Shown here in pieces: positions 6,449-26,782 of a stretch of 46,590 bases of DNA (position 1 is the stretch's first letter; each line of letters begins with the position of its first letter). The position numbers and the translations under genes are program-made. Under the pieces are notes generated by a model. The model saw nothing but the letters and a program-made list of their open reading frames with translations, made no database searches and was not told where the DNA came from. Location: NCBI GenBank assembly GCA_008690995.1, contig VRMN01000032.1, forward strand, positions 1 through 46,590, written 5' to 3'. This DNA is from Porphyridium purpureum. Taxonomy: Eukaryota.

Positions 6449-8398
6449 ATGGTGCAAGGGATCCTGGGTCTTGCCCGCGCTCGAGCAGACGAGCTGATGC
6501 GTTCGTGGGGCCCCGCGCGCCCGCACGACGCGAAGACTGTGGCGCCGCCATTTCTTGGGTGCACCGATGCCGCTGCAGTGGAGATCGGCAGTGTGGCACG
6601 CGCGGCTGGCGGCATCCCCGCAGCGCTTCCCTCCGTCTCAGTGCCATCGGGCTCATTGTCGTGGGCGGCACGAGTCGCTCAAGCGGGGCCAGTCCCTGCG
6701 ACCGGCCAGGGTGATGGGCACATGGGCCGCACACTCACAGGCCGGGCACCTGTAGCAGCGCTTGCACAAACCCCGCGGGCCAGCAACCTCAAGGCTGCGT
6801 CTGGCAGCCGTGACGGCGCTGGATGGACCCAGACTGCACTGGGGATGCAGTCGTTCGAGTGGATTGTCCTGACAAGCTGCCACACCTCGGCAGAGCCGCG
6901 CTCCGTGCGCAAAGGCATCCGGGCGCTGGTGGCTTCGAGCTCTCCGCGCCGGCAGGTGGAGGGCAAACTTCCAGTGGAGGTCCTGTCGTTGCCGGGCGCG
7001 CCGTCTCCATCCTTCCTGGTGCTGGTGCCGGTCGGGTACGCCGAGGTGCTGGTGGACATGCTGCCGAGAGTGAGGGCAGTACATGTGAACACCATCCCGT
7101 TCTGGAACGGGACAACCCGCACGGCCGCGCTTATGCAGCGCCTTGGCGTAGACGTGGCCCGCTGGGGCCAGAGTCTGTCGGAGAAGGCCCGCACGGCTCT
7201 CGTACGTGACGCCCATACGCACACGGACCGCGTGGGTGCGCTGGACGCCCGCTCTTTCAAGAGCAAGCAGGCTGTGCTGGGACTTCTCCACCGCCTGCGC
7301 AAGACCCTGGAGCGCACGACGCCTGGGCCACCAGCTGCAAAGGTTCGCGCCACCACGTCGGGTAGCGCCGCACGTCCAGCCGAGTTGGTGCCAGAAACAC
7401 ACGTGCCCCTTCAGCCTGGGGCGAGTGTGGCTGAACCACCGCCGGTATCACCAGGCACCGCGAGTACTATGACCGACCGTGAGGCATGCGGACTGCCGGT
7501 GGATATGGGTGACAATGAAAGCCCAGCGGCGACCACGTCGGGTCACTCCGACGAGGAGAGCTCGACCAGCTCCGTCGCATTCTGCTCGGACTCGTCTATG
7601 CCGCTCTGTCCTGACAGTCCTCCGGGACCGGCCTCACAGTTCGTCGCAGGACCTTGCGCAGTGGTGCGCACGCCAGAGCGCTCACCGGCAGCAAAGCACG
7701 GTGCACCAGAGAAAAGCTCCCCGGAGCACAACCCGAAGCGACCTTCGGGGGCTCTCCGTGACGGGACACCCCGGGCGTCTCGCGCGCTTTTCGTGCAGCC
7801 AGCGGCGGGTACGGATTCGCAGCAGCAGACACCACCTGGACCAGACGGGCAGGTCGGGCCCGACGTCGACGCCCCGCAGGCCGCGCTTGCAGCCGAAGCT
7901 CCGCCGCATCCAGACGCGCGGCTGGTGGCCGACTACAGCGGCACCGCACCGGCAGGGAGCTTGGCCAGCTTGCCTGGAGCAGCACACTCGGATGCTCCTG
8001 ACGCGTTTGTTGGTGACCCGACACGCACAGACCAGGCTCTTCGCTGTCCCGCTGCGGATTGTGCAGCAGGCACGAGCAGCCACACCGTGCACGCCACCAC
8101 CGAGGCACTTGTTGCGCACATGAATGACGCCCACGCGGCTGCGGGCGCATTTCTTGATCGCGCGCGCCTGGCGCAGGCGGGCATCGGGGCGTACCCGTGC
8201 GGTCGCGTGTTCAAGCTGGGCACGTCCAGCAAGGCCCTCAGCATGCACCGCAGTCGGTGCGAGGGGGTCAGTGCGGGCTGCCCCCGTGTGGATGACGCCA
8301 TTTGGGGCGCATTCATCCAGGCCACGGCGCCAGCGCGCACGAGCCAGTCGCCGTCATCTGCACAGCCCTCCGGGGCTCATGAATACCATGATGAGTAA
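6449..8398 (+). CDS. Family B ORF1 (or the frameshifted N-terminal part of a single ORF): Pro/Ser/Ala-rich, with C-terminal zinc fingers
   Basis: ORF 6413-8398, first ATG at 6449. Motifs CPAADC..EALVAHMNDAH and YPCGRVF..LSMHRSRC. Directly upstream of and overlapping the RT ORF. Confidence 0.65.
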   Translation: MVQGILGLARARADELMRSWGPARPHDAKTVAPPFLGCTDAAAVEIGSVARAAGGIPAALPSVSVPSGSLSWAARVAQAGPVPATGQGDGHMGRTLTGRAPVAALAQTPRASNLKAASGSRDGAGWTQTALGMQSFEWIVLTSCHTSAEPRSVRKGIRALVASSSPRRQVEGKLPVEVLSLPGAPSPSFLVLVPVGYAEVLVDMLPRVRAVHVNTIPFWNGTTRTAALMQRLGVDVARWGQSLSEKARTALVRDAHTHTDRVGALDARSFKSKQAVLGLLHRLRKTLERTTPGPPAAKVRATTSGSAARPAELVPETHVPLQPGASVAEPPPVSPGTASTMTDREACGLPVDMGDNESPAATTSGHSDEESSTSSVAFCSDSSMPLCPDSPPGPASQFVAGPCAVVRTPERSPAAKHGAPEKSSPEHNPKRPSGALRDGTPRASRALFVQPAAGTDSQQQTPPGPDGQVGPDVDAPQAALAAEAPPHPDARLVADYSGTAPAGSLASLPGAAHSDAPDAFVGDPTRTDQALRCPAADCAAGTSSHTVHATTEALVAHMNDAHAAAGAFLDRARLAQAGIGAYPCGRVFKLGTSSKALSMHRSRCEGVSAGCPRVDDAIWGAFIQATAPARTSQSPSSAQPSGAHEYHDE

Positions 8399-11300
8399 GG
8401 ATACGTTTGTACCCACTCTCGGGGATGCCCCGAACCGGCAAGCAGCCGGTCGGGCAGGGTCCGAGTCGGACTCTGACTGGGCGGCCTGGGACACTCCAGA
8501 TGCCGGCGGGGACGTCGGTGTACGCACCGAGCATGCCGCAGTCTCACTCCGACAACGGGGCAGTCTGACTTCTGTGCGCGAGACTGGCGCCGAACGGACA
8601 TCCTCCGCGTCCAATGACGCGCCAAGTCGGCCCGCTCCGAGCACGGGCAATGAAACCATCATGGCGCCGGGACTCCGGCGACGGCGTCCGACGCTTTCCC
8701 GTGCACCGATCCTGGGCGATACAGAGTCGCCCACCGACAGCTCCTACTCGACCTCCGACTCTGGGGATGACTGGCTGCCCCAGCGTGAGCGAGCAGGCCA
8801 GCCATCAGATGACCACGGACAGCGGCCGCAGAGTCGCGGCGGCCTAGCACGGCCCCGGACACCGCAATATCCGTGCCCGGAGCCGCGTTGCCCGTTTGCG
8901 AGCAGCTCCATGGCCCACGTCGGCCGCCACTGGGGGCGCGAGCATCCCACGATCATGCCACCGGCGGACGTGTGGGGCGCGCTGGAACTGCGCAGAAACA
9001 AATGCGGGCTGGCGGTGCCACGAACCCAGGCTGACTCGGCATGTCAGTGCGGACCATGTACGACCGCGAAGCCCAAGTGCCCAGTCTGTGACACTCGCCT
9101 CGACCTTCGGTCCTCGCAGGTGCGCCACTTCTCGCGCCACTCTGCAGCGCAGGTCCGCGCCGTCCCGCCCGCGGTTCTGCGCACGCTGGGCGTTGGCCAG
9201 CGAGCGTGCGGCAAGATTTGCGAGGTCAACTCGCTGAACCACCCGCATGCCATCTCGCGATGCCTGGACCCAGTGCTTTGTGGCTCGGGCCTCACCCATG
9301 CCCAGACGCTGGCCGTCCGGCGCAACCGCGCAGCAGATGACCTGACTGGGCTCGACGACGTGTTTGCGCAACTCCGCAACTCTCCCTCGGAGTTCTTCGG
9401 TGCCGCCTCCACCCATACACTCGTCCGTTTTGTCGATGCGGTTTTGGCAATGCAGGTCAGAACATGGAAGCGGGTGCCGCAGCGGCTCAGTGCCACGGTG
9501 GCGCTCGAGCTCGCAGCCATGCTGGAGGACTTGGCGCGGGCGCCGTCGGAACTGGAGCAAGTGCGCGCTCTGAGCCGGCTGTGGACGTTCCCGACATTGG
9601 TTCTGTGCCTGCCGCCCGGGCGACAGCCGTCCCGCGCACGAGCGGCCTTCTTGGTGGACCGACTCCACAAGTGGCGCGCGGACAGCATCACTGAGCTTGT
9701 TTCGGCCGTCCCGGTAGACGCTGCTTTGCCAACGGGTACGCTGACTCCAGACCTGCTCGCAAAGCAGGTTCAGAAGCACATGCGCGCGCACCACATTGGG
9801 GCTGCCGCGCGTCTTCTCGAGTCCAGCGGCATTCATCAGGTCACTGATGACGTGCTTGCCAAGCTGCGCGCGCTGCATCCGTCAGCCGCCGACACCAGCT
9901 CACTGCGCCACGATGCGCACGGGCCTGGTCAAGACTCCGCATCCGCAGCTGACGTTCCTTGGGAGGGCGACGACATTCGTCAGCTCATCCTCGCCATTCC
10001 CCACACCAGCGGGAGCGGTCCGTCCCGCTGGTCGGCAAGTCTGCTGCACCAAGTGCTTCAGACCGAGGTGGCCGGCTCCAAGGTCCAAGTGGCTCTGCTG
10101 CGAGTGTCGCAGGCGCTCGTTCGTCGTGGCTTCGAGGGCCAGGCCGGAGCGCTCTGGAACCACGCCCGCCTTATTCCTTTGCGCAAGAAGGATGGCGGCG
10201 TGCGACCCATCGCGGTGGGTGAGGTGCTTCGTCGCGCGCTCGGCAAGCTTGCGCTCCGCTGCCTCGGCCAAGCTGCCGTGGACAGCCTGCTTCCGCTGCA
10301 GTTCGGCGTAGGCCGCAAGTCGGGCCTGGAGGCCGCCATCATGGGTACTCGCATGGCCGTGCTCGAGCCAACGCAGTCCGAGCCCGTAGCGGCCCTGAAA
10401 ATTGACCTGGCGAACGCTTTCAACACGGTCAGTCGCCACACGCTGCTTCGCTTGGTGCACGCGCGCTTTCCCGAGTTGTGGCCGCTGGTGCGGTCAACTT
10501 ACTCAACACCTTCTCCTCTTCGGCTCGGGACCCAAATGCTGTACAGCGCTCGGGGCGTGCAGCAAGGGGACCCGCTTGGCCCGCTCTTGTTTTCGTTGGT
10601 CCTGCAAAACGTCTTGGCCCAGTTCTCGGCGCCGCAGGTGCACCAAGTATGGTACTTGGACGACGGCTGTGTCGTCGGCACGCCAGCGCACTTGGCTGCA
10701 TTCCTTCTGGCCTTCGAGCACGACGCGCAGGCCCATGGCCTGGCGATCAATCGCGCAAAGACCGAGTTTATCTTGACGGGCACGATGACGCGCAGCGATG
10801 TGCCGGACGGCCTGCAAGACTTGCTCGTCACTTCGTGGTCCGAGGCGGAGCTTCTCGGTGTGCCCCTGGACGCGACCGGTGCAGGCCGTGCACTGGCGCC
10901 CATCGCGCGTCTCTCTCGCAAGGTCCTCGACCTGGCTCGCACCGTGTCCGAGTTGCCGTGCTCCGAAGAGGCGTTTCACCTCCTCCGCGGCAGCGTGGGC
11001 CCGCGCCGCCTCGCGCACCTGACGCGCACCATGCCGGCCGATGTGATCCGTGCGGAGCTCGCTTCCTTTGACGAAGGCTGGCGGCACTGCGTCGCACGCA
11101 CAGTCGGGACTGCGCCGGCGGACTGCCTCGACGGCACCGACGTCCGACCCGAGTGGCGCTTGCCCTTGTCAATGGGGGGCCTCGGCCTGACCGCGCTCAC
11201 CGACGTTGCTCCGTTCGCGTTCGCGGCAGGCAGCCGTGCAGCCGCGCGTGCCTTGGACCAGGTACCCGATGATGTGGTGCCACCCACTTTGGTGCGCTGG

Positions 11301-12164
11301 GATGCTCGGTTCCACAGCGACCAGGCGGCTCTGGCTTGTCTCCCAGCGCCGGTCGCCGCTGACGATGCGCCTCCCGGAACACTCCTGTCGTCCCAGACGC
11401 AGAGTTGCCGTCGCTTTTTCCGCAAAATGCAGACAGACTGGCTCTCTGACCAAGGCACCACGACGTGGGAGTTCCACCGAAGGCACGGCATCTCCGCTCC
11501 GTTTGCGCTGGCTTGGCTGAGCATGCCGAGCGCTATACCTCTGGCAGGTCACGCGACTCGGATGCGGCCGCACGTGTGGCAAGCTGCGGTGCGCCACATG
11601 CTCGGGCTCCCGACGCGCCTGGCCCAGTTTGCTTCGCAGACTCGGTGCCCGGCCATTTCGGCCACGACCGGTGCCATTTGTGGCGAGCGCCTGGACGCTC
11701 TGGGCCGGCACGCGCTCGCTTGTGTGTTCGGGCCCTCGCGCTACGGGCGCCACGAACGCGTGGCAGAAGCGCTCCGGGACTTTGCCCACGCGGCGGGTCT
11801 GGTGACCGTGCGCGAGCCCGCGGTGTGCGACACCAGCACGGCTCGGCGGCCGTACGACGTACTGATTGGCACGACCGGCGTCGACGTCTCGGTCGTCCTG
11901 CCGGACAAGGCAGGTGCGCGGCGCACGCCCGGCTCCGCCATTCGCATCAAGACTGCGGCCAAGCTGTCGGCCTACACTTCGCTCGTGTCGGCTCGTCCGG
12001 GCCCGCTGGCAGTCAGCGCCACCGCTCACTCTGCAGCGGTGGCTCCGACTTCGTTTTGCCCGCTGGTGCTGGACATCTTTGGGCGCCTGGGCGACGATGC
12101 CCGACCTTTCCTGGCCTCGCTCGCGGGGTCATTCCAGATGGCAGGCGCGGCCAGGCCTCGATGA
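8379..12164 (+). CDS. Family B ORF2: zinc fingers, reverse transcriptase, CCHC knuckle and PD-(D/E)xK restriction-like endonuclease; extreme C-terminus frameshifted
   Basis: CPEPRC..GRHWGREH; GVRPIAVGEVLRR; IDLANAFN; GVQQGDPLGPLLF; WYLDDG; MGGLGL; C..CGERLDALGRHALAC; RHERV; RPYDVL..GVDVSV..AAKLSAY; FCPLVLDIFGRLG. The intact C-terminus is seen in the copy at 21801-22187. The ATG at 8379 is my choice within ORF 8124-12164. Confidence 0.9.
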   Translation: MNTMMSKDTFVPTLGDAPNRQAAGRAGSESDSDWAAWDTPDAGGDVGVRTEHAAVSLRQRGSLTSVRETGAERTSSASNDAPSRPAPSTGNETIMAPGLRRRRPTLSRAPILGDTESPTDSSYSTSDSGDDWLPQRERAGQPSDDHGQRPQSRGGLARPRTPQYPCPEPRCPFASSSMAHVGRHWGREHPTIMPPADVWGALELRRNKCGLAVPRTQADSACQCGPCTTAKPKCPVCDTRLDLRSSQVRHFSRHSAAQVRAVPPAVLRTLGVGQRACGKICEVNSLNHPHAISRCLDPVLCGSGLTHAQTLAVRRNRAADDLTGLDDVFAQLRNSPSEFFGAASTHTLVRFVDAVLAMQVRTWKRVPQRLSATVALELAAMLEDLARAPSELEQVRALSRLWTFPTLVLCLPPGRQPSRARAAFLVDRLHKWRADSITELVSAVPVDAALPTGTLTPDLLAKQVQKHMRAHHIGAAARLLESSGIHQVTDDVLAKLRALHPSAADTSSLRHDAHGPGQDSASAADVPWEGDDIRQLILAIPHTSGSGPSRWSASLLHQVLQTEVAGSKVQVALLRVSQALVRRGFEGQAGALWNHARLIPLRKKDGGVRPIAVGEVLRRALGKLALRCLGQAAVDSLLPLQFGVGRKSGLEAAIMGTRMAVLEPTQSEPVAALKIDLANAFNTVSRHTLLRLVHARFPELWPLVRSTYSTPSPLRLGTQMLYSARGVQQGDPLGPLLFSLVLQNVLAQFSAPQVHQVWYLDDGCVVGTPAHLAAFLLAFEHDAQAHGLAINRAKTEFILTGTMTRSDVPDGLQDLLVTSWSEAELLGVPLDATGAGRALAPIARLSRKVLDLARTVSELPCSEEAFHLLRGSVGPRRLAHLTRTMPADVIRAELASFDEGWRHCVARTVGTAPADCLDGTDVRPEWRLPLSMGGLGLTALTDVAPFAFAAGSRAAARALDQVPDDVVPPTLVRWDARFHSDQAALACLPAPVAADDAPPGTLLSSQTQSCRRFFRKMQTDWLSDQGTTTWEFHRRHGISAPFALAWLSMPSAIPLAGHATRMRPHVWQAAVRHMLGLPTRLAQFASQTRCPAISATTGAICGERLDALGRHALACVFGPSRYGRHERVAEALRDFAHAAGLVTVREPAVCDTSTARRPYDVLIGTTGVDVSVVLPDKAGARRTPGSAIRIKTAAKLSAYTSLVSARPGPLAVSATAHSAAVAPTSFCPLVLDIFGRLGDDARPFLASLAGSFQMAGAARPR

Positions 12165-12335
12165 TCTTACATCGGGCCCTTTCCTGGCCGTCTTCTGGTC
12201 GGCAGCCGAGGCCGTGCTTCTGCGGGTATTGGCACCCGCCATCCCGTGGCGGGACTGCAATGCTCTTCGGGCCTCCGCTCCTGGCGCCCACACCATGTCT
12301 CGACATCAGTCCGTGTGCTAAATGGCAAAAGAACG

Positions 12336-12592
12336 CCCGGAAAAACTCTTGGAAAAACTCCTTGCAGTGTCAGCACGAAAAGTACAGTGCTTTTTCCATT
12401 GTCTGTCTTTTTTGAGAAAACTCTAATAATAAATGGCAGAAAAACTCGTGGAAAATCTGTTCAGCCGCTGTCCTTTCAGAATAGTAGAGTGATCTGAGGT
12501 ATTTCAAACGCATCTTCGTGAATTTTGGAAAAACGTTTCTTGTACGAATTGAAAAACTCGGAGAAAAACAGCCGGAAAAAGCATGGGACTCG
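12336..12592 (+). repeat. Left subterminal repeats of the DNA transposon (GGAAAAACT-like)
   Basis: ccggaaaaactctt, ggaaaaactcc, gagaaaactc, gaaaaactcgtggaaaa, ttggaaaaacg, gaaaaactcggagaaaaacagccggaaaaagc. Confidence 0.85.
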
Positions 12593-12625
12593 CGTGAAAG
12601 GGGAAGTGATTCGTGTACCGCAACT

Positions 12626-15600
12626 TCAATTGTATGCTTGTACGCCCTCAAATGTGTTCGGGTTCACGAAGTAATACCATCGGCTAAGCTTCTGCGATGT
12701 ATCCTGGAATGCTGTCACCCTCCCTGTTATCATCGTCGCGTCTATCACTTGCACGGAGTCGCTTTGCAATCTCTGGTGGTGGAACACGGGCTCGAGACGC
12801 ATGCACTTGCTGGCGCACTGCGACTTGGAGGATTCTCCATCATGCCCTTCGAAGTCCTGAATCACTGCGACATCGAAGGTCTCGTTGTGCTCATCCGTAT
12901 TTATCGTGATCCGGGCGATTAAGATGCATTTCCCGTACGCGTACTGGTCCGGGTGGGTCGAGTGCTTTGAGTACTCGACGAAGTCCCATCGCGGATTCTT
13001 ATAGTGATCCGGATGCGCGACGATGCATTCGACAGTCTGCCTTCGGTGCTTGAGCTGCATTTGTCGAAAAGCCTCGAGTACAACTGATGCATGCGTCGCT
13101 TCAGCGCGGAACTTGTTCATCGCGAAACGTTTCAAAGCGCTATCCATTCTCGCCCATAGAGCTACCCTTTCAGCGTTGCTGTTTGTGCTGTTGGATGTAC
13201 GCGAAGCGTATGGGTTCCATATTTGTGGTTGCCATTCCAAAGCACTTCGAAACCCGTTCTCTCTGGTATATGTCCAGACGGTGCATGCGTCGCGCCAGAC
13301 ACCGAATAAAGACGATGAGAAATGTATTGACGATCCTCGATGCCGGTACCATGGGTGTCTTTGATTTGCTGTGTTCTCATTTGGTGCCGTGTTGGTGAAC
13401 GTCCGCACGTCTGATTGTTGGCCCTCATTCGAATACGCGTCTCGCGTTAGTTGCCAGAGCCAGCGATTCGAAAACGATGCAAGTTCGTGCTTAGCAGCGC
13501 GGCGTAGCATAGATTCATGCGGCTTCCAAGTGTCCGAACCAACCAGCGACTTGAACCAGACCTTGTCAACTTGGAAGGATTTTTCACCGTCCGTCGTATC
13601 CCAAAATTTCATCGGCCCGAAGTCCGCCAAATTATCGCCAAAGTGAGAAAGCGCATGGATCTTTGGAGCATTCCAAGGTAGATTAATGCGCTGTGTGAAT
13701 ATTCGAAGCCGCGATTGCACTTCACTTGTGAGACTTGGGATGCGAATCAGCAGGTCACGGGGAATCACTCGCAGATATAGTACGCCGTACAACTGAATAC
13801 ATCGAATTGCAAGATTGGTGAAGGCAATGCGTGCATGATCCTCGAGGATGTCTTCCTGTTGTATGAGTACGACCATTTGGAGAAGGTGACCAAGCGAGTA
13901 TGATTGTTCAGCGAGTTTTGTCAAGTCGAGTAAGAAGTTAGAGGAGCGAATTCGCGTGTACACAGCGTGTCGTCGGAAGCTGGCTTCATTCATGATATTC
14001 GTGGCTATTCGGCTCCATGCTTTTCCAGCGGCTGAGTCAATGATTCCGCGAAGCTGATCTGTTGCGCTGCCTTTGTGCTTTGGAGTTGCCGTCTTCAATG
14101 GGAGCGCACGGCCATGTGCACTCGAGTGTGAAAATCTCGTCCCGCTGGGCGGAGCGCTTGCTGTCTTTCGTTTCTTTGCGGGTGACGCTTGTCCAGATTG
14201 TGATGGTCCATCGATGTCAGACGCGCATTCGCTGTTGGATTCGGAACCATGTTCGCTGTTGCTCTCGCCTGCACTGGCACATGTATCTTCGCTTCTATCA
14301 AGCGATGCCATGGCACCGATTGCGTCTTCTTCCTCCCCATGCTTTGAATATTGCTTCGCGCGCTCTTGCGCTTCCGTGAGTTCAAAGACAACGTTTGCTA
14401 CTCGGTGGGTGACATTTGGCTTGCTCAGTAATGCCTTGAGTCCGGCAACGGTTATGCCGCGGAACCAGAAAGCCAAGAAACCGTGAAGCCCATCGATACC
14501 GGTCAGTTGGAACCTTCCACGATTAAGAAGCCTTATGTGTTCCTCGTATCCAGCTGCAAGTTCGTTGAAATCTTTGTCATCATTCTCGTCGAAGCGATTC
14601 CATCCGATCGCTGCATGTTCTCCGATGAACTGCAGAGAATGTGCCTTTCTCATCGAAGCTCCCCATTCGGATAAGTGTTGGGTCACAAGGTGTTCAATTT
14701 TCTTCTCTGATCGATACTGCAGGGGACGTCGTGTAACCCAGAACTCATCATTTTCTGTTTGATGTGGCGCCGCTGGTGTGCTGAGCGTGTGTATCGATGA
14801 TTGTGGAGCTTGTACCATACATTGATGACAGGGCATTTTCTGCGCGCGCCCACCGGATACAAACGATGCCTTGGTGAAAGAGCACTTTGACATCATTGGC
14901 ATGTCCATCGATAATTTGTACACGATGGGAAAGAAAAGCAGTCGACGCTGCTGCCATGTTACTGGGATGCCATGTTTGTTAGCAGCTAGCGTGTCGTAAA
15001 ATGTTTTGCTCATGATCGCGTGATACATCGACGATTCGAGCTCACGTCGAGCCAACTTTGCATTGATGTGGAGGTTTTGGCTCGCTCCGAATGCTCTAGC
15101 AACGCATTCAGTGTCCACCGCAGGTAAATACGCGACGACATGTGGCTCACGGTGAGCATCTGAGCAGAACATGCGACGATGGACGATACGGATCTTGAGC
15201 GGCGTCATTGTATGACGCCCGTTCTGTGTCATGTGCGCTTCGTCAGCGTATATCTGCAGCGGAAGTAGAACTGCCTCAGGTGGGTCCGGACCATATTTCT
15301 GCCTGACTTCGAATGCGATGCGACGAGCTGCGTTGACACACAGGTTACCATCTTGCGGGAAAACGAGGGACTTGCGCTGTTGGTCTTCGAAGAGATTGAT
15401 TTTCAAGGCGTCCAAACCGTATTCCCTGATGATGGAAACAACCGAATTTACTGCGAGCTCCATTGGCTCACGGAAGCGAATCTTTTGGACCACATTGCGA
15501 GGTAAAATCTTCCCATGCAGTGTCTTCCCTGCGCCGTATTCAATAATTGCCTCCTGAGCATCGATGACTGTGTTTCCGATGATATCCGATATGCATTGCT

Positions 15601-16540
15601 TAGATCTGTGGGTGAAAAGAAGGGTCGAAGCTCGCTTAACCAGACCCGCAGCTGATTCGCTGATACTTGTTTGCATCACAGAGAAGGCCTTCTCAAGTAA
15701 AGATGCATCGCAGGTCGATAGATTCCTTCTCAAATCCGTGAAGGCGCGCCTGATTATTCGAGTAATATACCGAAGAGTCGTGCGAGTAGTGATGCGTAAC
15801 AGCTGCATCTCCATCGACTTTAGTTCAAGTGCTTCGCGAGTGGAAATGGCGTGCTTGTGCATAAACATCTCCTGTTCACTTTTAAACCTTAGAACTTCGA
15901 CTGCATCGTCGATGTCAATGTTCTCCGATGAGCCTATGCCAGTCAACGTGCGCACGTACTTCGAGATGCTGTCGTCGCGGTGTTGTAGGCGCTGGCGTAA
16001 AGTCTTCTGGTCGAGTAATCTCTCAAAACGCTTTGCATAACGGGTCACAAGCGTTTCGACGTCAATCTCTCGACTAGGATACGCATCGCTCATCTGTGCT
16101 GCATCGTGTCCCATACGTTCTGCTTCGTTGGCTTCATCATTGTCTGCCGCGTCATTCTCTAGAGCAAGATCATCATCCGATTCAATCTGCTCTTCTGGGT
16201 CCACGAAGTCATCACCGCCATCATTGTCGCTGTCCCGTGCGCTGTCGTCATGATTGTCTATGCCGGCACTGACGTCAAAGTCAATTCCACTGCGTGTATC
16301 GTCATCGCATGGGCCACCGTACACAGCAGTCGACCGTCGAAGATTCGCGTATGGAATGCGCCCTGTGCGTACACGCAGTCTGCAGCACAGTTTGTGTTCT
16401 CGCATGACTTGGACCCGCGCAGTGTAAGATAAACCTTGTCCTTCAGGCGGTGAAAAATCGCAGTTGACACCATCGCATTGTAATCTTTTCTCTCGACGAC
16501 GATGCCACGGCTTGTGGGCGAGGCTCTCACGACTATCCAT
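12626..16540 (-). CDS. Plavaka-type (EnSpm/CACTA-related) transposase, ~1300 aa, intact ORF
   Basis: LLPLQIYADEAHMTQNGRHTMTPLKIRI, SMDMP..C, PCHQC, IDGLHGF, WNAPKIHALSHFGDNLADFGPMKFWDTTDGEKSF and C-terminal HPDHYKNPRWDFVEY match the motifs I recall for Plavaka/CMC transposases. N-terminal Cys/His cluster and acidic tract. First ATG at 16540 within ORF 12626-16621. Confidence 0.8.
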   Translation of the reverse strand: MDSRESLAHKPWHRRREKRLQCDGVNCDFSPPEGQGLSYTARVQVMREHKLCCRLRVRTGRIPYANLRRSTAVYGGPCDDDTRSGIDFDVSAGIDNHDDSARDSDNDGGDDFVDPEEQIESDDDLALENDAADNDEANEAERMGHDAAQMSDAYPSREIDVETLVTRYAKRFERLLDQKTLRQRLQHRDDSISKYVRTLTGIGSSENIDIDDAVEVLRFKSEQEMFMHKHAISTREALELKSMEMQLLRITTRTTLRYITRIIRRAFTDLRRNLSTCDASLLEKAFSVMQTSISESAAGLVKRASTLLFTHRSKQCISDIIGNTVIDAQEAIIEYGAGKTLHGKILPRNVVQKIRFREPMELAVNSVVSIIREYGLDALKINLFEDQQRKSLVFPQDGNLCVNAARRIAFEVRQKYGPDPPEAVLLPLQIYADEAHMTQNGRHTMTPLKIRIVHRRMFCSDAHREPHVVAYLPAVDTECVARAFGASQNLHINAKLARRELESSMYHAIMSKTFYDTLAANKHGIPVTWQQRRLLFFPIVYKLSMDMPMMSKCSFTKASFVSGGRAQKMPCHQCMVQAPQSSIHTLSTPAAPHQTENDEFWVTRRPLQYRSEKKIEHLVTQHLSEWGASMRKAHSLQFIGEHAAIGWNRFDENDDKDFNELAAGYEEHIRLLNRGRFQLTGIDGLHGFLAFWFRGITVAGLKALLSKPNVTHRVANVVFELTEAQERAKQYSKHGEEEDAIGAMASLDRSEDTCASAGESNSEHGSESNSECASDIDGPSQSGQASPAKKRKTASAPPSGTRFSHSSAHGRALPLKTATPKHKGSATDQLRGIIDSAAGKAWSRIATNIMNEASFRRHAVYTRIRSSNFLLDLTKLAEQSYSLGHLLQMVVLIQQEDILEDHARIAFTNLAIRCIQLYGVLYLRVIPRDLLIRIPSLTSEVQSRLRIFTQRINLPWNAPKIHALSHFGDNLADFGPMKFWDTTDGEKSFQVDKVWFKSLVGSDTWKPHESMLRRAAKHELASFSNRWLWQLTRDAYSNEGQQSDVRTFTNTAPNENTANQRHPWYRHRGSSIHFSSSLFGVWRDACTVWTYTRENGFRSALEWQPQIWNPYASRTSNSTNSNAERVALWARMDSALKRFAMNKFRAEATHASVVLEAFRQMQLKHRRQTVECIVAHPDHYKNPRWDFVEYSKHSTHPDQYAYGKCILIARITINTDEHNETFDVAVIQDFEGHDGESSKSQCASKCMRLEPVFHHQRLQSDSVQVIDATMITGRVTAFQDTSQKLSRWYYFVNPNTFEGVQAYN

Positions 16541-16595
16541 GCCTATGCGCCGAATCTCTTTAACTCCCCTCGCACGGCCCCCTCGCGCCGTCCAA

Positions 16596-16671
16596 TCGTC
16601 CCGTCCTATCGTCCGGCCCACTCGTCCCGTCCTATCGTCCGGCCCACTCGTCCCGTCCTATCGTCCGGCCC
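16596..16671. repeat. Tandem repeat, 3 x 26 bp (ctcgtcccgtcctatcgtccggccca), just upstream of the transposase
   Basis: Three essentially perfect units read directly, ~55 bp 5' of the transposase ATG. Confidence 0.95.
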
Positions 16672-17507
16672 TTTCTTCGCGTGCGTCTAAGTTGACGCTA
16701 TTTTCTTCAAGTTGTTGGTGTGCATTACATCACCGCACTATTCAAGTATTATTACTAAAATGGCGTAGTTTCACAATACGTGCAATATGGGAATGCTTGG
16801 CTAGACTTTAAGATTTGAAAAGGGTCAAATTTATGATGGATGCAAAGGATCAGACTGAGCCTCTTGAGCTGACCAGCACTGATGGTGTAAGTGCATAGCA
16901 TACGAAGCGGCAGAGTGGGGCTTCGAATACAGGGCCGCGGTGGTAGAGCAGGTTCCGGCGAGAGAGCCAGTATTTGGGCGCGGCGGCTGGGCATTGGGTT
17001 CGAAAGGAAGCCACGCTTAGAAGCAGTCACAATCTGGGAAGTGTCATTATTTCTCGACATTTGACCCAGGAATCGGGTGGAGAAGTAGGGCGCTTCCGTC
17101 TTTCCGTGTGATCTAGCTTAGAATCATACTTGCAGTTATCGGCGTGTATTTACTGGGAGAATACTTTTTTCCCGCGCATTTGATTCCTCTTTTCAGTTGT
17201 GGGTATTTGGCAGTAGTATTAGTGCACAGTGGTGTATAGCGTCCACACTCTGTGTCGCGGTGAAAGAGAAAAGAAAATCGCTGAGAGTGAAGCATCAAAA
17301 TCAGCCCTCGGCACAAGTGCAACGCATGAGAAAACGTCGTCGTCTGAGGAGAGCACCTAGAGTGTGGAGGCCAGCGGTTCTGGAGAGGAGGAAAGTAGCG
17401 ATGCAGAGGACTAAGCGAATGCCGAGGGATCTGAACCGCGAACTGCTCCGGCGTGCAAACATCGCTGGTTTATGTGACGTTGAATGGAACGTAAATGTTC
17501 CATATCG

Positions 17508-18461
17508 TTAAAGGCCATGCGTTGCCTGAAGTAAGTAATCGTGCGCACATCTGCAATCAGTGATCAAGTCGGCCGCCACGCGGCCGCGTCTGCGACAGGA
17601 TCCGCTGACACAGTCACGCGAGCACGCCAGAGGAGCATCCATAGCTGCATCGGCAGAGCGCTTCGATAATCCAAACCTGATACAAGCAGAACCGTACGTG
17701 GCCTCGTAACATTCGAACACTCCGCGAATCTTATCCTGAGCAACCCACGAATAATCAGGCCAAGGATAACGGCACGAACCTTTGATATTCCAGCGGACCA
17801 GTAAGTACGATGACAATTTGCTCCAGATCACGTTGACGTCTGGCAGAGCACGAGCCCCAACAAGCTCAACTGCCAAGGGCCGACCTTCGAAGCGCACATA
17901 CACGCGACTGATCCGATGGTTTTTGGTTTTCAATCGCATATCGAACGCCGGATGTTCCAATAGAATTGCCTCGGGGATCGGTGATTGTACATCGTCGATG
18001 CGCTCAACCCTCGCTGGCCAACCGTCCGCATTCTTCTCTGGCCATTCCACCATCACCAGCTCAGGTACACTATGCTTCTCCTTACATCCCGTGTACGCAC
18101 AGTCGACTCCAGCCAAGAAGCCAGTCAAACCTTGCTGTGCATTGACCATCGATGCACGTAGCCAGACCAGTTCTGCGTGAAAGCTTGACTCGGTGGGATA
18201 CTTTACACGGGGCTCCATCGGAGGCGTCGGAAGCGATACACGCTGCCACTCGCACTGCTTCAAGATATCGATGAGTTCATTGACATCGTTGCGCAGACTA
18301 TGCAGTTCTGCCTCAACACGCGCAAGCTTGGAGTCGGTGATCATCGCGTGCAGCGCATACTCGCGTGCCTTTAATTCGCTGGTATTTTGCGCAATAATAT
18401 TGGCGTTCAGCGCCATCGCGAGCTGCATCCGCAATTGCTCCACTTCCTCTCTATCCGACAT
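17508..18461 (-). CDS. Transposon accessory protein, 317 aa: N-terminal coiled coil, putative PWWP/chromo (Royal family)-like region, C-terminal Cys cluster
   Basis: ATG-initiated ORF inside the TIRs. Heptad-rich N-terminus; VMVEWPEKNADGWPARV and YLLVRW..DYSWVAQDKI resemble PWWP/chromo aromatic motifs; CSRDCVSGSC..DCRCAH. The domain call is tentative. Confidence 0.6.
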   Translation of the reverse strand: MSDREEVEQLRMQLAMALNANIIAQNTSELKAREYALHAMITDSKLARVEAELHSLRNDVNELIDILKQCEWQRVSLPTPPMEPRVKYPTESSFHAELVWLRASMVNAQQGLTGFLAGVDCAYTGCKEKHSVPELVMVEWPEKNADGWPARVERIDDVQSPIPEAILLEHPAFDMRLKTKNHRISRVYVRFEGRPLAVELVGARALPDVNVIWSKLSSYLLVRWNIKGSCRYPWPDYSWVAQDKIRGVFECYEATYGSACIRFGLSKRSADAAMDAPLACSRDCVSGSCRRRGRVAADLITDCRCAHDYLLQATHGL

Positions 18462-19170
18462 GACTGAATGGCGTAAAGGACGGAGCCTTCTCAGCGACTA
18501 CACCACCGTTGATCTAAACTGCTCGCCTTCGTCCAACTTGGGCACAGACGCCAATACATCAGACATGCATACAGTAGTTAGCCGTTCACCCTGAGCGAGC
18601 ACTTTCTAGTAAAACGAACGTGCTTTTATGTGATGCCCCATAAACCCACACGGCAGACCTGTTACACTACACGGAAAATGCACATGAAAAATTCGCCGCA
18701 GGATCACATTTCCAGCGTAGCGCGCCAAAAATGCTCAAATACAAGAACCGCACGCAAGGTGGCGCTCACACTTGACATGTCAAGACAAAGCTGAGAAGCG
18801 GAAGAGTTGGTGGTGCAGCGTGTTGCCGCTTGCGAAACGGGGTGTGGAGCGGCTTGTCGAACGGTGTGCGGCGGGCAGTGCTCGGCGGTTTGCGGCGCGC
18901 AGCGATCGGCGTTTCATGCTGTGGCTCGGGTGCGGGATGTGTTGCTGAGGAAGGTGCGGGTTGACGTACAAATACGACGATTCATCACGAGGAGTCATCT
19001 GGCGAGCCGCGAAGTCTGGGTGGCCTGCGTGTAGTCGATGACGCGACACTTTGGCGCATTGAACGACACACGGATCGGAGACCAGCTTGTGGCATCGACG
19101 AAATATCTGCGGTGGTTGCGATTACACGTGCATATCAGCTGCGAAGAGAACTGGAAGAACTCGCTCTCAC

Positions 19171-21345
19171 ATGGGACCAAACCCGCGCCCTCCAGGTCTG
19201 CGCGGACGCGCCGGAAAACATGTTGCTAGAAAGAAGTGTCGAGCTGGTGAACGCAATTGCGAAACCCGAATAGCACCGACGTACGCACAAACAGCAGCGA
19301 TGAATACAACGACGGAAGTCGAGGAACAAGATCCATTCATAAGTCTGAAAACTGGCGCGGCAGCATCGAACACGTTCCCGGACAGTAATGTGGATGCTTA
19401 TGTTACATCCATGGAAACCGTTGCGTCGTTTTTGTATGAAAGCGAAACCACCGTGATGCAGCCAACGACGACTGGCGAAGGCCTCAATGCACAGCTGCCC
19501 ATTAACCCCGTCGATCGCATATGTTTTACGCCATCGGATGCGACTCAGGACATCAGCTTCGAAACAGTTTACCCGACGGCAACCACTGCGCGAATAGTAT
19601 GCCCTGAATCAAAAAGCCCCACCGGGATCCGCGCAAAGACCTACTCGATGAATATTTCGATGAATACTTCGATGACCAAGCAGACATCTAAATTGAAGAA
19701 GCGCAACGTGACACAGAAGCCGTATACCAAAGGAAGTATATGTGATCTTGACCTCGTGAGATTTTTTCGACAAGGGACGGCGCCGCTGATGCCTTTGACA
19801 ATTACGGAAGAGTGTTTGGCAGCGATGGATTCATTTGCAGCGATGCGCGACCCCAAGCGCGCGGCGCCCAACCATGTCGACAATGATCATCCGATGGGAA
19901 TCCGAGATACCGCTCTCAATGAGACGCGCGGTACGGACCATGGACGCAACGTTGTGGTACCACAGACACAACAGACGAACGCATGGTATACGGATTACTA
20001 CACGTCTAACACATCCCCGTCCACCAATGGCTTCGCCTTCGCGTACATTTCAAAGTGCATGACTAAGCTGAGTTCATCGCACATCCTCGAATTGAAAGCA
20101 GCGCGTGAACGAGCTTTGACGTTGACCTACACTACGATCCGGCGATACTTATTCATCGGCGTCTCGCTTATCGCCCCGCTGGCTGGCAATGATATGCTAT
20201 CACATGACTTCGCTGGACAATTGAAGGATACAGCATTTCCAGACGACGCAGGTGCTTGCGCTGACTTGACTTACGATTTCCTGAAGTCCCTCGACGCAAT
20301 GAATATGTCACCAGAGCTACAAAGAAAAATCCTTGTTCGAAGCATGACACGATGTCTCATCGGGCATCAAGCTTGGTCCGTTTTCCTGAACCCAGCGGCG
20401 TTTCCCATCAAACATATTCCGAATGCGCTCAAAGACCTGGGCGTCATCGATATCAGCGAGTTCAAGGACGTGCATTCCTGGGTATTCGTCGAACTGATCG
20501 CAACCGGATTGCGCATATACGCAGTGCTATATGCGACGATCTGCTCGCTCCAACCCATAACGTCATGCGAAAATGACCAATCAGAGGAACGATGGACACC
20601 GGAACATTTCGAAAGCATCTTGATATCCGAATCTGCAGCGAATCGACACTTCGAACAAGCGACGTCGACTATTCTCTCGTATATGCTGTCCTGCAACCAT
20701 GCTTCCAACGAACCGGCATGTTTGATTAACGAATCTCAAGTCGAAGACAGTCCGCTGCATTTACGGACACGTCGATTGCTGACGCACTTCCAGACACTCA
20801 AACCCATGCGACGAACTAACTGCGTTTTGCATCCCAACAAACCAGCGCTCTTTACCGACACATACACAGGCATCATCGACTTTCTCAAGTCCATGCAGCA
20901 ATCAAGTATGACGCTGCACAGAGCGATGAAGACGCTGAATTCGGGATCGCTACCAGGTCAGTGGGGAAAACCGTTCCCATCGTCGGCGATTTTATACACC
21001 CGCGGCTCTAGAAGCGATGGTTTTGATCCATGTCTCGTCGACGACAGCAAGCGACGACTGCTCGAGCAACGAAAAGCCTTATTCGACGCAAACTTTCTCA
21101 GACTCTATCTCCGAAACATCATCGCCGCTTTACCGCAGATTCTGCCACAGTACAAGATGGCATGCACGAATACGGATACGGACGACGTCGAAGTACTTCG
21201 CCGAGGCATATGGGAAGCCGTGATAGCTTTCGGGAAGCAAACGCTGATCCATGTCCTCACTGATAAAGCGTTGAGCATTCCCTTGCCCTCGAAGACGCGC
21301 AACGAATACGACGACGACGATGACTGTTTTGCAAATTTCCTTTAG
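19171..21345 (+). CDS. Transposon accessory protein of unknown function (~680-725 aa)
   Basis: Long uninterrupted ORF (19087-21345) inside the TIRs, divergent from the other two ORFs. Candidate ATGs at 19171 and 19300. Thr/Ser-rich N-terminus, helical core, acidic tail. No family recognised. Confidence 0.7.
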   Translation: MGPNPRPPGLRGRAGKHVARKKCRAGERNCETRIAPTYAQTAAMNTTTEVEEQDPFISLKTGAAASNTFPDSNVDAYVTSMETVASFLYESETTVMQPTTTGEGLNAQLPINPVDRICFTPSDATQDISFETVYPTATTARIVCPESKSPTGIRAKTYSMNISMNTSMTKQTSKLKKRNVTQKPYTKGSICDLDLVRFFRQGTAPLMPLTITEECLAAMDSFAAMRDPKRAAPNHVDNDHPMGIRDTALNETRGTDHGRNVVVPQTQQTNAWYTDYYTSNTSPSTNGFAFAYISKCMTKLSSSHILELKAARERALTLTYTTIRRYLFIGVSLIAPLAGNDMLSHDFAGQLKDTAFPDDAGACADLTYDFLKSLDAMNMSPELQRKILVRSMTRCLIGHQAWSVFLNPAAFPIKHIPNALKDLGVIDISEFKDVHSWVFVELIATGLRIYAVLYATICSLQPITSCENDQSEERWTPEHFESILISESAANRHFEQATSTILSYMLSCNHASNEPACLINESQVEDSPLHLRTRRLLTHFQTLKPMRRTNCVLHPNKPALFTDTYTGIIDFLKSMQQSSMTLHRAMKTLNSGSLPGQWGKPFPSSAILYTRGSRSDGFDPCLVDDSKRRLLEQRKALFDANFLRLYLRNIIAALPQILPQYKMACTNTDTDDVEVLRRGIWEAVIAFGKQTLIHVLTDKALSIPLPSKTRNEYDDDDDCFANFL

Positions 21346-21493
21346 ATGCTTCATTTCTGCAGCGAAAATAAAAAGTAACCGTTGAGTATTTCGGTTACAA
21401 AGTATGGGAATTCTCACGTGTAATTTATGGAAGCTTGAAATGGCTGTCAAAAGAACTTCCAGATCTTGGAATGCCGGAATGTAATGAGAGCCG

Positions 21494-21610
21494 TGGAAAA
21501 AGTCCTGGAAAAACTACTGGAAAAGCTCCCGGAAAATCTCTTCTCCGCCCGAAAGCTGGTGTAAGCAACAGAAAATAGTTTTTCCAAGAGCTTTTCCAGT
21601 AGTTTTTCCC
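21494..21610. repeat. Right subterminal repeats of the DNA transposon (direct, then inverted, GGAAAAACT-like)
   Basis: gtggaaaaagtcctggaaaaactactggaaaagctcccggaaaatc is followed by the inverted set agtttttccaagagcttttccagtagtttttcccgg. Confidence 0.85.
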
Positions 21611-21658
21611 GGTCGTATCCTAAAGTCGAGAGGGGACCAAATTTCAACACGCGGACTG

Positions 21659-21746
21659 ATTGGCCACTGCTCCGGTACAGCGGTAACACAGTAGCGTTGC
21701 AGTTTATCTTTAGGTTAAGGATCCGACAGTAAAATCGTAACCAGAG
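21659..21746 (+). mobile_element. Displaced 3' end (last codons and 3' UTR) of the long family B element
   Basis: Matches 22160-22248 and ends gtaaaatcgtaaccagag. Confidence 0.9.
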
Positions 21747-22255
21747 GCAGGTGCGCGGCGCACGCCCGGCTCCGCCATTCGCATCAAGACTGCGGCCAAG
21801 TTGTTGGCCTACACCTCGCTCGTGTCGGCTCGTCCGGGCCCGCCGGCAGTCAGCGCCACGGCTCACTCTGCCGCGGTAGCTCCGACCTCGTTCTGCCCGC
21901 TGGTGCTGGACATCTTTGGGCGCCTGGGCGACGATGCCCGACCTTTTCTGGCCTCGCTCGCGGGGTCATTCCAGATGGCCAAGCAGCTGCGGCGCGGCCA
22001 AGCTTCGATGATTCTCCATCGGGCCCTTTCCTTGGCCGTCTTCCGGTCGGCAGCCGAGGCCGTGCTTCTGCGGCATTCGGCACCCGCCATCCCCGTGGCG
22101 GGACTGCAATGGCTCTCTTCGGGCCTCCGCTCCCTGGCGCCCACACCATGTCTCTCGACATTGGCCACTGCTCCGGTACAGCGGTAACACAGTAGCGTTG
22201 CAGTTTATCTTTAGGTTAAGGATCCGACAGTAAAATCGTAACCCAGAGTAACCCT
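21745..22255 (+). mobile_element. Family B copy 2, 5'-truncated, head-to-tail
   Basis: Starts aggcaggtgcgcgg (matches ~11908). Carries the intact REL C-terminus (ORF 21801-22187). Ends GTAACCC-AGAGTAACCCT. Confidence 0.92.
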
Positions 22256-22510
22256 GTCGTCCCCACCTTGCGGATCACGTACCCACCCTGCAAATCACGT
22301 ATCCATTATGTTTCGCGTGACTGTACACATGCTGCGGCTGGCATGCCCATTATAAGCGGATACCGCGTCCCCAGTATGAAGATACTGTACCTCTAGGGTA
22401 GAAGTTCTGCTGGCACCCGTGATTTGAGGGGTTCAGCATATGCGGATGCCGGACCCATGGCCGCGGATCATGTACCCACCATTGCGAATGGCGTACCCAC
22501 TGCAAAGGTA
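22256..22510. repeat. Degenerate ~20-bp tandem repeats (gcggatcacgtacccac-like)
   Basis: gcggatcacgtacccaccct, gcaaatcacgtatccatt, gcggataccgcgtcccca, gcggatcatgtacccaccatt, gcgaatggcgtacccact. Confidence 0.6.
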
Positions 22511-22740
22511 CTTACAGTCATATATCTCAGCAATACAAGCACCGTTTCACATGCAAAGCACATCGTTGTGAGCGCGAGAGCAAGGGCTATCATTCAATAT
22601 CCAATTTGAATGACAAATTTGTAGCATACTTGAGTAAACAATTTTGTAATGTTTTTTAACATCAACCTACCATATGGACCACACATCCTTCCCAAAACGC
22701 ACTAACCCAATACTACAGTCTGAAGCAGCTGTACTAGAGT

Positions 22741-22808
22741 CCGAAGCAACTGTACTATGGTATGGCCGAACCGCAGGGCCCACCCTACCTGAAAAACGCC
22801 TCTAACCC
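22741..22808 (+). repeat. 68-bp dispersed repeat, copy 2 (identical to 5774-5841)
   Basis: Exact match; ends ctctaaccc(t) directly against the truncated copia fragment. Confidence 0.92.
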
Positions 22809-22816
22809 TGCGAGCG

Positions 22817-23605
22817 GTGAAGTCACCCGGCGAGAAGATGAATGCTGACGCTATATTGGATGTTCAAGTCGAACATGGGCATCTGAAAATACGCGAGCAT
22901 GTTGGGAGGCTGCTGTGGTTGGCCAGGACGGTCAGACCGGATATATCCTACGCAGTTGGAGTGGTGGCTCGGTATGTGGATAGCTGGAACGTCGCAGCTG
23001 AGAGACTCCTGGTTCGCGTCATGCAATACTTGAAGGTGCCTCGTGAGCCACTTGAGTATTTGCGGATGACGTCATTGAAGATCAGCGACGTAAGCGTCTT
23101 GGGCTATGCTGATGCCGACTTTGCTGGATGCCCGGAAACGCGCAAGTCAACGTCTGGGAGAGTGACGTACTTGGTCGCGGGTGGAAACAAGTATCTGGTC
23201 GATTGGAGCTCCAGAAGGCAACGCTTTGTGAGCTCTTCGACCTCTGAGTCTGAGATGGCCGCTCTGGAAGAAGCGGTGCAGTTATCTTTGTTTCCGGCAT
23301 TGTCGTTTCTTCGAAGCGTGCAAGAGGGGGATTATGCGTTGACCCTGCTTTGTGATAGTCAAGTTGTTCTCCGTGCGGTCGAGATGGGCTACTCGCCAAA
23401 GTTGCATCACATGGCAGTGACCAGAGCCACGGACTTGGCGTGGATACACCAAGTTTGCGAGAAGCAAAAGCTGGTGAGATTGGAATATGTGAGGACGGGG
23501 GAAAACGTGTCCGACTTGATGACAAAACCTTTGTTTCCGGAAGGTCATATCAGGTGTTGGACTATGTTACGCGTCCCTCAGATCGGAAGGAGGAGCATGG
23601 ATTAA
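22817..23605 (+). mobile_element. Ty1/copia pol remnant (RT C-terminus and RNase H), 5'-truncated
   Basis: VGRLLWLARTVRPDISYAVG, GYADADFAGCPETRKSTSG, DWSSRRQRFVSSSTSESE, LLCDSQ and YVRTGENVSDLMTKPL are canonical copia RT/RNase H motifs. Confidence 0.92.
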
Positions 23606-24338
23606 AAGTGTTCCGGTCCGAGAGACGCCCTGGGTGTACACCCGGAGGTACGGCGTCTCGGAATTGTTTGAGGTACAGGGGCTTTTTCGCCCGCGTGGTT
23701 TTTTACCCTGTACCTCTGGTTTTGTGTATTGTTGTCTTTCGCCCCGAGGAGCCGCAGTCGCGTGTCCGAGGGAAGCAGGAGCCGCTTGGCGGCCGGCCAG
23801 CACCCATTGAGCCGCTTGCTGACGTGGCTGGCTGTGGCTTCGTTCTGTGGAACGAACGGAGGAAAGCCCAGCCTTTTGGGAGAAATAATTTCTCCCTTCC
23901 GCGTCAAGGACAGCAAGGACGGCGGGGTATATAATGGGCGCGGGCCCGTGCGGTTCCCCGGATTTCTAGAGAGCGGAAGAAGTAGAGGCAAGGGAGAAGG
24001 ACACAGAGAATAAAAGAGGAGTTGGTTCTTTGGTGTCGGTGCCTGGGCGTGGTCGTTGGAAGGCGTGGGGCCTTTTGCTGAGCCTGTGTAGCAGAGCCAG
24101 CAGCACATCGTGTCTGGGGGGTTTCGGTGCTCTTAGAGCACTGAAGGCAGACGGCGGCTTTGTCCGTTACGACACCCTGCCCCTGTCGAGACCGGTGCTG
24201 TCTGTGCCGACGCGAAGGGCAATAGTAGAGGCCCTATACGTTGGATTTTCCACGCCCCGGGTATTCGTCGTCTGTGTTGTGTGCGTCGTGTGGTTGTGTT
24301 CTCTGTGCTGTGTGCGTCGTGTTGCTGGGGTTCGGTCA
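23598..24338 (+). mobile_element. Probable 3' LTR of the copia element
   Basis: Polypurine tract GGAAGGAGGAG (23585-23595) followed by TG; internal TATATAA (~23928) and AATAAA (~24008); a candidate end ..TCA at 24338 where the neighbouring ORF is cut. There is no second LTR to confirm the boundaries. Confidence 0.5.
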
Positions 24339-26114: not shown

Positions 26115-26782
26115 TGGACCAGCACGGCCACCACGCGCTCAAGTGTCATCTCGGCCCGTCGCGGTACGGTCGGCATGCACTGGTGGTCGACGCCGTGGCA
26201 GCCTTTGCGCGCGCCGCTGGCTTGCCGGTGGAGCGCGAGGTGCGCCTTCCCGGCGCGGCAGACCTGCGCCGGCCGGGCGACCTGCGCGTGGACAGCACGG
26301 GTCGATGTGGCGGTGGTGGTGCCCGACCGCACCGGCACCAGGCGGTCCGACGGAGCGGCACTCGCGGCAGCGGCGCGTCGCAAGCTCCTTCCAGGATGCT
26401 GCGCGCACTGGCGACGCTGCTGGCGTGTCGTTCCAGGCGGTCATTCTGGACACGTACGGCCGGCGCGAACAGTGCGGAGCCGCGTTTCTGGAGACTCTGG
26501 TGGCGGCGTACATGCGGCACCGTGGAGTAAGCCAGATGCTGGCAAGCACGGCGCTCCACCGGTCGCTGTCGCTCGCAGTATACCGCTCGGTGGCGGCGGC
26601 GGTGCTTCTACGGTACCCGGGCCCGACTCTGCCAGTTGCCTCGCAGCACTGGCTGGAGACGGGCAGGCGCCTCTTTGTAGGCGAGGTACTCTCGGAATCG
26701 GAAGCAGAGTCGCACTGACTCTGCTGATACATAGGTACAGAGCTTAGGCCCTTTAGATTTATAATGTAAAACGATTTCAGAG
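26115..26782 (+). mobile_element. Family A copy 3, 5'-truncated (REL region and 3' UTR)
   Basis: Near-identical to 4031-4697. Retains HGHHALKCHLGPSRYGRH (knuckle and RH motif). Ends aaaacgatttcagag and joins unique DNA. Confidence 0.92.

Follow-up and report, generated by a model that had tools for sequence, protein, structure and literature searches.

We describe here a mobile element at positions 12307-21658 of a 46,590-nucleotide stretch of the genome of the unicellular red alga Porphyridium purpureum (contig VRMN01000032.1, assembly GCA_008690995.1), the whole of which is hereafter called the window. This element is probably a complete, multi-copy DNA transposon, which sits near the 3' end of a long interspersed nuclear element (LINE) and likely moves by cut-and-paste, using a DDE transposase of Plavaka type from the CMC/CMCT (CACTA-RAG-Transib) clade. 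An original prediction, made from the letters of the window, had proposed these boundaries together with an AT target-site duplication, CAG..CTG-type ends, subterminal repeats and three open reading frames (ORFs), all of which are borne out.

At the left junction, host sequence ending in CGACAT is followed by CAGTCCGTGTG from position 12307, and at the right junction CACGCGGACTG runs up to position 21658, after which ATTGGCC is read. The inverted ends are imperfect, 13 of their first 16 positions being in agreement (the binomial chance of at least 13 of 16 at two fixed points is 3.8e-6). The motif GGAAAA/TTTTCC occurs six times in the first 300 bp of the element and seven times in the last 300 bp, compared with seven times in its 8752-bp interior and 14 times in the remaining 37,238 bp of the window. 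Subterminal repeats are a trait of CACTA elements, and those found here are likely to be binding sites for an element protein. GC content is 0.51 in the element versus 0.67 in the host LINE.

As AT is self-complementary, the window alone also allows a reading with ATCAG..CTGAT ends and no duplication. The CAG/CTG termini are settled by other insertions: in six public DNA runs (X1 to X6), contigs stop matching the element at 12306/12307 or at 21658 and continue into other flanks. The four readable left flanks finish with AT, GT, GA and GT (a purine at position -2 in all four), and the three readable right flanks start with AT, GA and GC (a purine at position +1 in all three). Pairing of flanks between runs, from which the right flanks in X1 and X2 and the left flanks in X6 were omitted as two-contig mixtures, gave one pair (GA) compatible with a 2-bp duplication and none compatible with 3 bp. 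Other copies therefore have the ends expected from the original prediction, and the duplication length is documented by one full case (AT) and one further hint (GA). These results bear on another reading, that of an unrelated mobile unit (for example an endogenized virus piece or a tyrosine-recombinase element) with AT belonging to a palindromic end. The self-complementary AT and the orphan status of two of the three genes would fit such a unit, whose probability we nevertheless regard as close to nil: it is already largely refuted by the CAG/CTG ends of the other copies and by the RAG1/Transib-like fold predicted for the transposase (see below). In addition, related loci were not found in viral contigs, and a viral fold library returned no significant match to the transposase model. 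Searches of metagenome contigs (where a left-end pattern was also used) and of prokaryote genomes yielded no related loci.

The transposon is a young, multi-copy family with near-identical copies at different sites, in line with the recent insertion proposed in the original prediction. The cluster grouping transposases at 90% identity has five members, all of them P. purpureum genes, located on five contigs. One of these is the present contig, whose member is identical to our transposase over 1304 amino acids, while identity is 99.1-99.6% for the other four. Three further members were retrieved for ORF2 and three for ORF3, some with truncated or fused gene models; as their locus tags adjoin transposase copies, the three genes travel together. 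One gene model from another copy, P0018, extends past the same right end and continues into sequence resembling a Copia RNase H. Summed contig depth, which is not equivalent to copy number, is in X1 190-307 over the element versus 17-22 on the LINE, and in X2 547-760 versus 58.7; this roughly tenfold depth over the LINE fits a multi-copy family. Between the window and the runs there are at least 19 differences within the ORFs (nine silent, ten residue-changing, and none creating a stop), and one more outside them. No derivative with an internal deletion was detected as a joint in the six DNA runs, although short contigs cannot exclude one. Two RNA runs, which were sampled to 20-25%, are linked to the window by species label only and contain reads that may derive from any copy, show sense RNA for each of the three ORFs (depth about 0-11) and no spliced joint within the element.

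The LINE in which the element is inserted is followed directly by a second, 5'-truncated copy, where the corresponding site is uninterrupted (22156-22166, CGACATTGGCC) and contains a single AT. The original prediction had taken this site as an empty-site control. The single AT stands; the site itself, which shows ten mismatches in 235 nt relative to the interrupted LINE and belongs to a separate truncated copy, is that of a paralogue rather than the pre-insertion allele. An empty form with one AT was also seen in three of the four runs of one DNA-run comparison and in X1, and may likewise represent paralogues. More generally, the window contains two families of non-LTR (long terminal repeat) retrotransposons, 65% alike in the reverse transcriptase region, at 337-4712, 8124-22248 and 26115-26782. 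Each has a 5'-truncated copy in tandem behind it (337-4712 for family A), and both terminate in the motif AGAGTAACCCT, which suggests a common specific target or tail. Isolates differ greatly in LINE depth: in X4, contig depth reaches 3,800-6,200 on the host LINE (12200-12306 and 21659-21745) versus about 200-300 on the transposon, whereas in X1 and X2 the LINE has about one tenth of the transposon depth.

Assignment of the transposase to Plavaka is indirect, because the direct match to a hidden Markov model (HMM) fails (see below). In the ESM Atlas, the top match (0.97, 213 of 256 features) falls in a cluster of which 38% carries the Pfam Plavaka family PF18759 (100% in a later cluster), and the ten best family-bearing matches all agree on Plavaka. 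An HMM built from three Porphyridium proteins yielded 17 matches among 1.84 billion proteins. Thirteen of them form a close lineage of P. purpureum families and metagenome proteins without meaningful Pfam match. When 15 of the 17 were scanned with Pfam, a meaningful family appeared only in the four weakest matches (E 2-5e-4); it was Plavaka in every case and never Transposase_21. Three of these four relatives, two of which come from mushrooms, lie above the Pfam cut-off and one just below. Comparison of the lineage with these Plavaka proteins by hhalign gave 98.7% (E 2.6e-16), and a reverse HMM built from the Plavaka relatives scored our protein (P0001) at 79.5 bits, the highest score among 100 shuffles being 0.1. 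Furthermore, the PKxH, DT..GE and DxxH columns align with those of Plavaka proteins. No match to an unrelated family, an outcome envisaged in the original prediction, was obtained for the transposase. Word-based protein searches retrieved Porphyridium proteins only, or nothing, and searches of PDB sequences with the element proteins gave one weak unrelated match or none. At least four further transposase families of the same lineage, several of them multi-copy, occur in P. purpureum outside the window (P0005, P0044, P0006, P0025, P0026 and P0023); in some of these sister gene models, a fusion with Copia gag-pol has led to the erroneous name 'Ty2-B Gag-Pol'.

The transposase start was placed at the methionine at 16540, because the sister protein P0005 starts there and sense RNA depth is zero at 16614-17014. 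An annotated 1441-amino-acid model with an upstream exon at about 17060-16758 is doubted on the same grounds. Key residues of P0001 are D472, D585, C610/C613, D722/H725, H1001/H1005 and E1025. In an alignment of 14 rows, D585, C610, C613, D722, H725, K999, H1001 and E1025 are invariant, and D472 and H1005 are kept in at least 90% of rows. For the CMCT clade, the accessible parts of Kojima 2025 (PMC12730594) list two cysteines and three histidines in addition to the three acidic residues. The DDE triad D472/D585/E1025 in an RNase H-like core, the C610-x2-C613 pair, H725 and H1001-x3-H1005 are all present in our protein, as are 5'-CA..TG-3' termini (CAG..CTG) and a duplication within the 2-5 bp range (AT) in the element. 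Against 48,161 chains, a structure model built from 14 sequences had RAG1/RAGL as its top five matches (Z 10.2-11.9, root-mean-square deviation (rmsd) 4.0-6.8, 334-351 residues aligned), and HzTransib scored Z 9.5. Over model residues 722-943, it resembled the BAH domain of ORC1 (Z 9.7, rmsd 3.5, 130 aligned) and BAH1 of DNMT1 (Z 9.3, rmsd 2.6, 111 aligned). The predicted fold is thus a RAG1/Transib-like core with a C-terminal BAH domain, and Plavaka transposases reportedly often carry such a domain. A first fold from three sequences, with a predicted local distance difference test score (pLDDT) of 32, was discarded. Judging from sequence and model, the transposase most likely belongs to Plavaka, outside both fungal subgroups, and to CMCT by every feature tested. 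The original prediction of a Plavaka transposase outside fungi is supported, the Atlas, the distant relatives, the motifs and the predicted fold being in agreement on a Plavaka-like protein of CMC type.

Several points, concerning either the insertion or the family, weigh against our reading. Both flanks of a duplication have been seen at one site only, and the GA pair joins contigs from different runs and may be due to chance. In addition, neither junction of the present insertion is bridged by any of the contigs listed. This last result would also be expected if the insertion were an assembly product, with filled and empty LINE copies merged in the long-read assembly or junctions derived from very few reads. 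Two local features point the same way: the contigs of the three runs covering 12227-12279 lack five small indels that the window shows there, and identity to the paralogue is complete over the 84 bp that follow the element but 96% in the upstream LINE part. However, the breakpoints coincide exactly with ends confirmed by other copies, and a mis-join is not expected to leave a clean 2-bp duplication. We therefore consider an assembly product very unlikely; the transposon family is in any case real regardless of this one insertion. The indels belong to a cluster in the LINE left of the insertion (12143-12306), which is absent from the runs' contigs, puts the LINE out of frame with a premature stop at 12164, and probably consists of unpolished long-read errors.

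As regards the family, neither P0001 nor parts of it matched Pfam Plavaka (PF18759) or any other transposase family at E up to 10. The check suggested in the original prediction, against the Plavaka and Transposase_21 profiles, thus came out negative for both at this threshold, and P0005, P0006 and P0011 likewise lacked a PF18759 match. The hhalign and reverse-HMM results are partly circular, because the Plavaka set was picked by this protein's own profile. The tree of 16 proteins contains no EnSpm, ESTA, Chapaev or Lanisha outgroups and long branches meet in it; such a tree cannot demonstrate nesting inside Plavaka. The structure model has a mean pLDDT of 63, and Foldseek returned no match at E<=0.001; its RAG1/Transib- and BAH-type matches appear only at E 0.014 and weaker. 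Finally, in the accessible parts of Kojima 2025 (PMC12730594), fungal PlavakaA elements have TGT..ACA ends and a 2-bp duplication, and PlavakaB elements CATCA..TGATG ends and a 2- or 3-bp duplication; CAG..CTG agrees with neither terminus. An element working in the same way may represent a separate CMCT lineage, either sister to Plavaka or closer to EnSpm, ESTA or Lanisha, rather than Plavaka proper. Consistent with this, PF18759 was matched by none of the 13 close relatives tested, identity to Pfam-Plavaka proteins is merely 15-18%, and the ends obey the clade-wide CA..TG rule while fitting neither Plavaka subgroup; the same source also reports EnSpm families resembling Plavaka proteins. All labelled distant relatives are nonetheless Plavaka and none is Transposase_21, and the PKxH, DT..GE and DxxH motifs match Plavaka column by column. 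On balance, we find a separate lineage unlikely and retain the Plavaka assignment.

For a Plavaka-type element, a transposition cycle can be proposed by analogy with RAG1/Transib and CACTA elements. The transposase would bind both the subterminal GGAAAA repeats and the CAG..CTG termini and bring the two ends together, which would be cut by the D472-D585-E1025 triad, with zinc held by C610/C613 and the histidines of the H(3)H motif. The ends would then be joined to target strands 2 bp apart, apparently at purine-first dinucleotides, so that repair would leave a 2-bp duplication. The predicted C-terminal BAH-like domain may contact chromatin. Both identifiable targets are retroelements, namely the present LINE and, in the case of the P0018 copy, a region of Copia RNase H, in a genome of the 20-Mb class. 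A bolder scenario, which we consider rather unlikely, is that Plavaka comprises a third lineage (with CAG..CTG ends, a purine-first 2-bp duplication and invisibility to Pfam), of which the element would be the first member to be delimited, accompanied by several other transposase families in the same genome, still mobile, and endowed with a BAH domain that would read repressive histone marks to land in silenced retrotransposons.

The element has three open frames, at 12626-16657 (minus strand), 17508-18497 (minus strand) and 19063-21345 (plus strand). Pfam and PDB sequence searches assigned no family to ORF2 or ORF3, nor did the ESM Atlas to ORF3. A reading of ORF3 as a fungal Zn2Cys6 factor was rejected, as the Atlas match (0.88, 124 of 256) lay under the tool's own bar, and a Tudor/chromo-like appearance of ORF2 by eye received no support from Pfam and PDB sequence searches. 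Both move with the element as cargo, for which a helper or anti-silencing role would be a guess. No Rfam family was detected in 11000-24000. All features of the element and its insertion site are listed in the table.

Table. Coordinates of the transposon, its genes and its insertion site in the window.
Feature	Position	Strand	Remarks
Whole DNA transposon, CAG..CTG ends	12307..21658	none	9352 bp; junction reading, ends shared by copies elsewhere
AT target-site duplication, left copy	12305..12306	+	Single AT in paralogue and in empty-form contigs (joint 12301 to 21659)
AT target-site duplication, right copy	21659..21660	+	Junction reading
Left terminal inverted repeat, matching at 13 of 16 bp	12307..12322	+	End comparison
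Right terminal inverted repeat	21643..21658	-	End comparison
Left subterminal repeats, GGAAAA(A/G/T)C-type	12335..12583		5 forward and 1 reverse
Right subterminal repeats	21491..21613		4 tandem (12-bp period) and 3 inverted, making a 42-bp inverted pair
Transposase, 1304 aa	12626..16540	-	Met at 16540; frame open to 16657
Predicted C-terminal BAH-like domain	12656..13321	-	P0001 ~1113-1334; structure matches
13/26-bp tandem repeat	16588..16671		Just upstream of transposase start
Accessory ORF2, 317 aa	17508..18461	-	Present in other copies
Accessory ORF3, 724 aa	19171..21345	+	Divergent from ORF2; present in other copies
Host non-LTR retrotransposon (RVT_1), 5' part	8124..12306	+	Insertion ~8 codons before ORF end, as read in paralogue
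Host LINE 3' end beyond insertion	21659..21746	+	Junction reading
5'-truncated paralogous LINE copy	21745..22248	+	Uninterrupted site at 22156-22166

Other observations concern the remainder of the window. At 22808-23000, a repeat border shows an RNA depth of about 10,000-54,000 in X21/X22 (on one strand) and a very high DNA depth, and the adjacent segment 22703-22808 matches 5736-5841. A Copia-type RNase H-like stretch at 23183-23566 is 39% identical to the Copia part of P0018. Two paralogous genes on the minus strand (28567-31729 and 43300-45677) encode a protein kinase together with Sel1 repeats, which recur every 111 bp, and an MLKL-like helical bundle at the N-terminus, an arrangement reminiscent of immune-type kinases. 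Finally, a 1401-codon open frame at 34372-38577 (minus strand) has only a weak HYR_4C match, and a 15-bp tandem repeat (6.4 copies, 96% matches) lies at 41687-41782.

Placing Plavaka with CMC/CACTA, as the original prediction did, is correct and is not news: membership in CMC/CMCT, 2-3-bp duplications and red-algal hosts are already in print (Petroll 2025, Kojima 2025 and the Spirogyra genome). With respect to this published classification, the P. purpureum element is an added data point. What is new is modest, namely a divergent lineage missed by Pfam, a host for which we found no Plavaka report, ends unlike those of fungal PlavakaA/B, and two cargo genes without an assigned family. We found no publication pairing Porphyridium with Plavaka in a search whose coverage excluded subscription journals, Repbase and the Bostrychia and Spirogyra supplements, and those supplements may list Porphyridium. 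In the accessible parts of Petroll et al. (bioRxiv 10.1101/2025.02.11.637652), red-algal Plavaka are restricted to Bangiophyceae and Florideophyceae, and Porphyridium is unnamed in the main text; our element, by adding a unicellular red alga to the hosts of the group, bears on this statement. It also indicates that Pfam scans miss a whole lineage. Its practical value is that of an intact, low-copy transposon of Plavaka type, intron-free as far as the lack of spliced joints shows, whose ends are exactly known and whose host can be cultured. No transposition assay for a Plavaka transposase was found in the cited literature, and the element is a ready substrate for such an assay and for asking whether the BAH tail steers insertion.

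Comparison with known systems places the element as follows. RAG1, BbRAGL and HzTransib (PDB 6cij, 6b40 and 6pqn) are the best structural matches of the catalytic core, but identity is about 9-10%, the P. purpureum transposase has a BAH-like tail, and Transib duplications are 5 bp long. With EnSpm/CACTA it shares short inverted ends beginning with CA, more than one gene and the CMC motifs, whereas it differs from EnSpm/CACTA sensu stricto by CAG rather than CAC termini and by the lack of a Transposase_21 match; fungal EnSpm elements have a 3-bp duplication, compared with 2 bp here (PMC12730594, accessible parts). In the same source, Plavaka is put in the CMCT clade, whose members have CA..TG ends and duplications of 2-5 bp, and fungal PlavakaA/B resemble our element in the D-D-E triad, the C(2)C and H(3-4)H motifs, the short inverted ends, a similar size and a 2-bp duplication. 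In contrast to them, the P. purpureum transposase has no PF18759 match and carries a long acidic insert that separates DxxH from PKxH; no TET/JBP gene was found in the element, and both of its cargo genes are orphans.

Elsewhere, terminal inverted repeats of a Marasmius Plavaka were described in 2021, and polymorphic EnSpm-Plavaka insertions are on record in Auxenochlorella. According to the accessible parts of the Spirogyra genome paper (PMC13519894, bioRxiv 10.1101/2025.10.09.681428), Plavaka occurs in red and other algae and clusters within CMC; these archaeplastid Plavaka are described as proteins and trees, as opposed to the delimited element in P. purpureum. The closest parallel by host is the Plavaka of the red seaweed Bostrychia, classed as EnSpm/Plavaka from transposase, terminal motifs and duplication length in the available text of Petroll et al. 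(bioRxiv 10.1101/2025.02.11.637652). There, the florideophyte PAG cassette comprises PAG2 (methylase and SET), PAG3 (ParB-like and 2OG oxygenase) and PAG1, which has no known domain; PAG1 and PAG3 have no InterPro matches. In a comparison by domain description, methylase, SET and oxygenase domains were not among the Pfam matches of ORF2 and ORF3, PAG1 having no domain to compare. The Bostrychia and P. purpureum elements have in common a red-algal host and the carriage of accessory genes, but the former are 17.4-19.1 kb long and mostly degenerate, whereas the latter is 9.35 kb long and intact.

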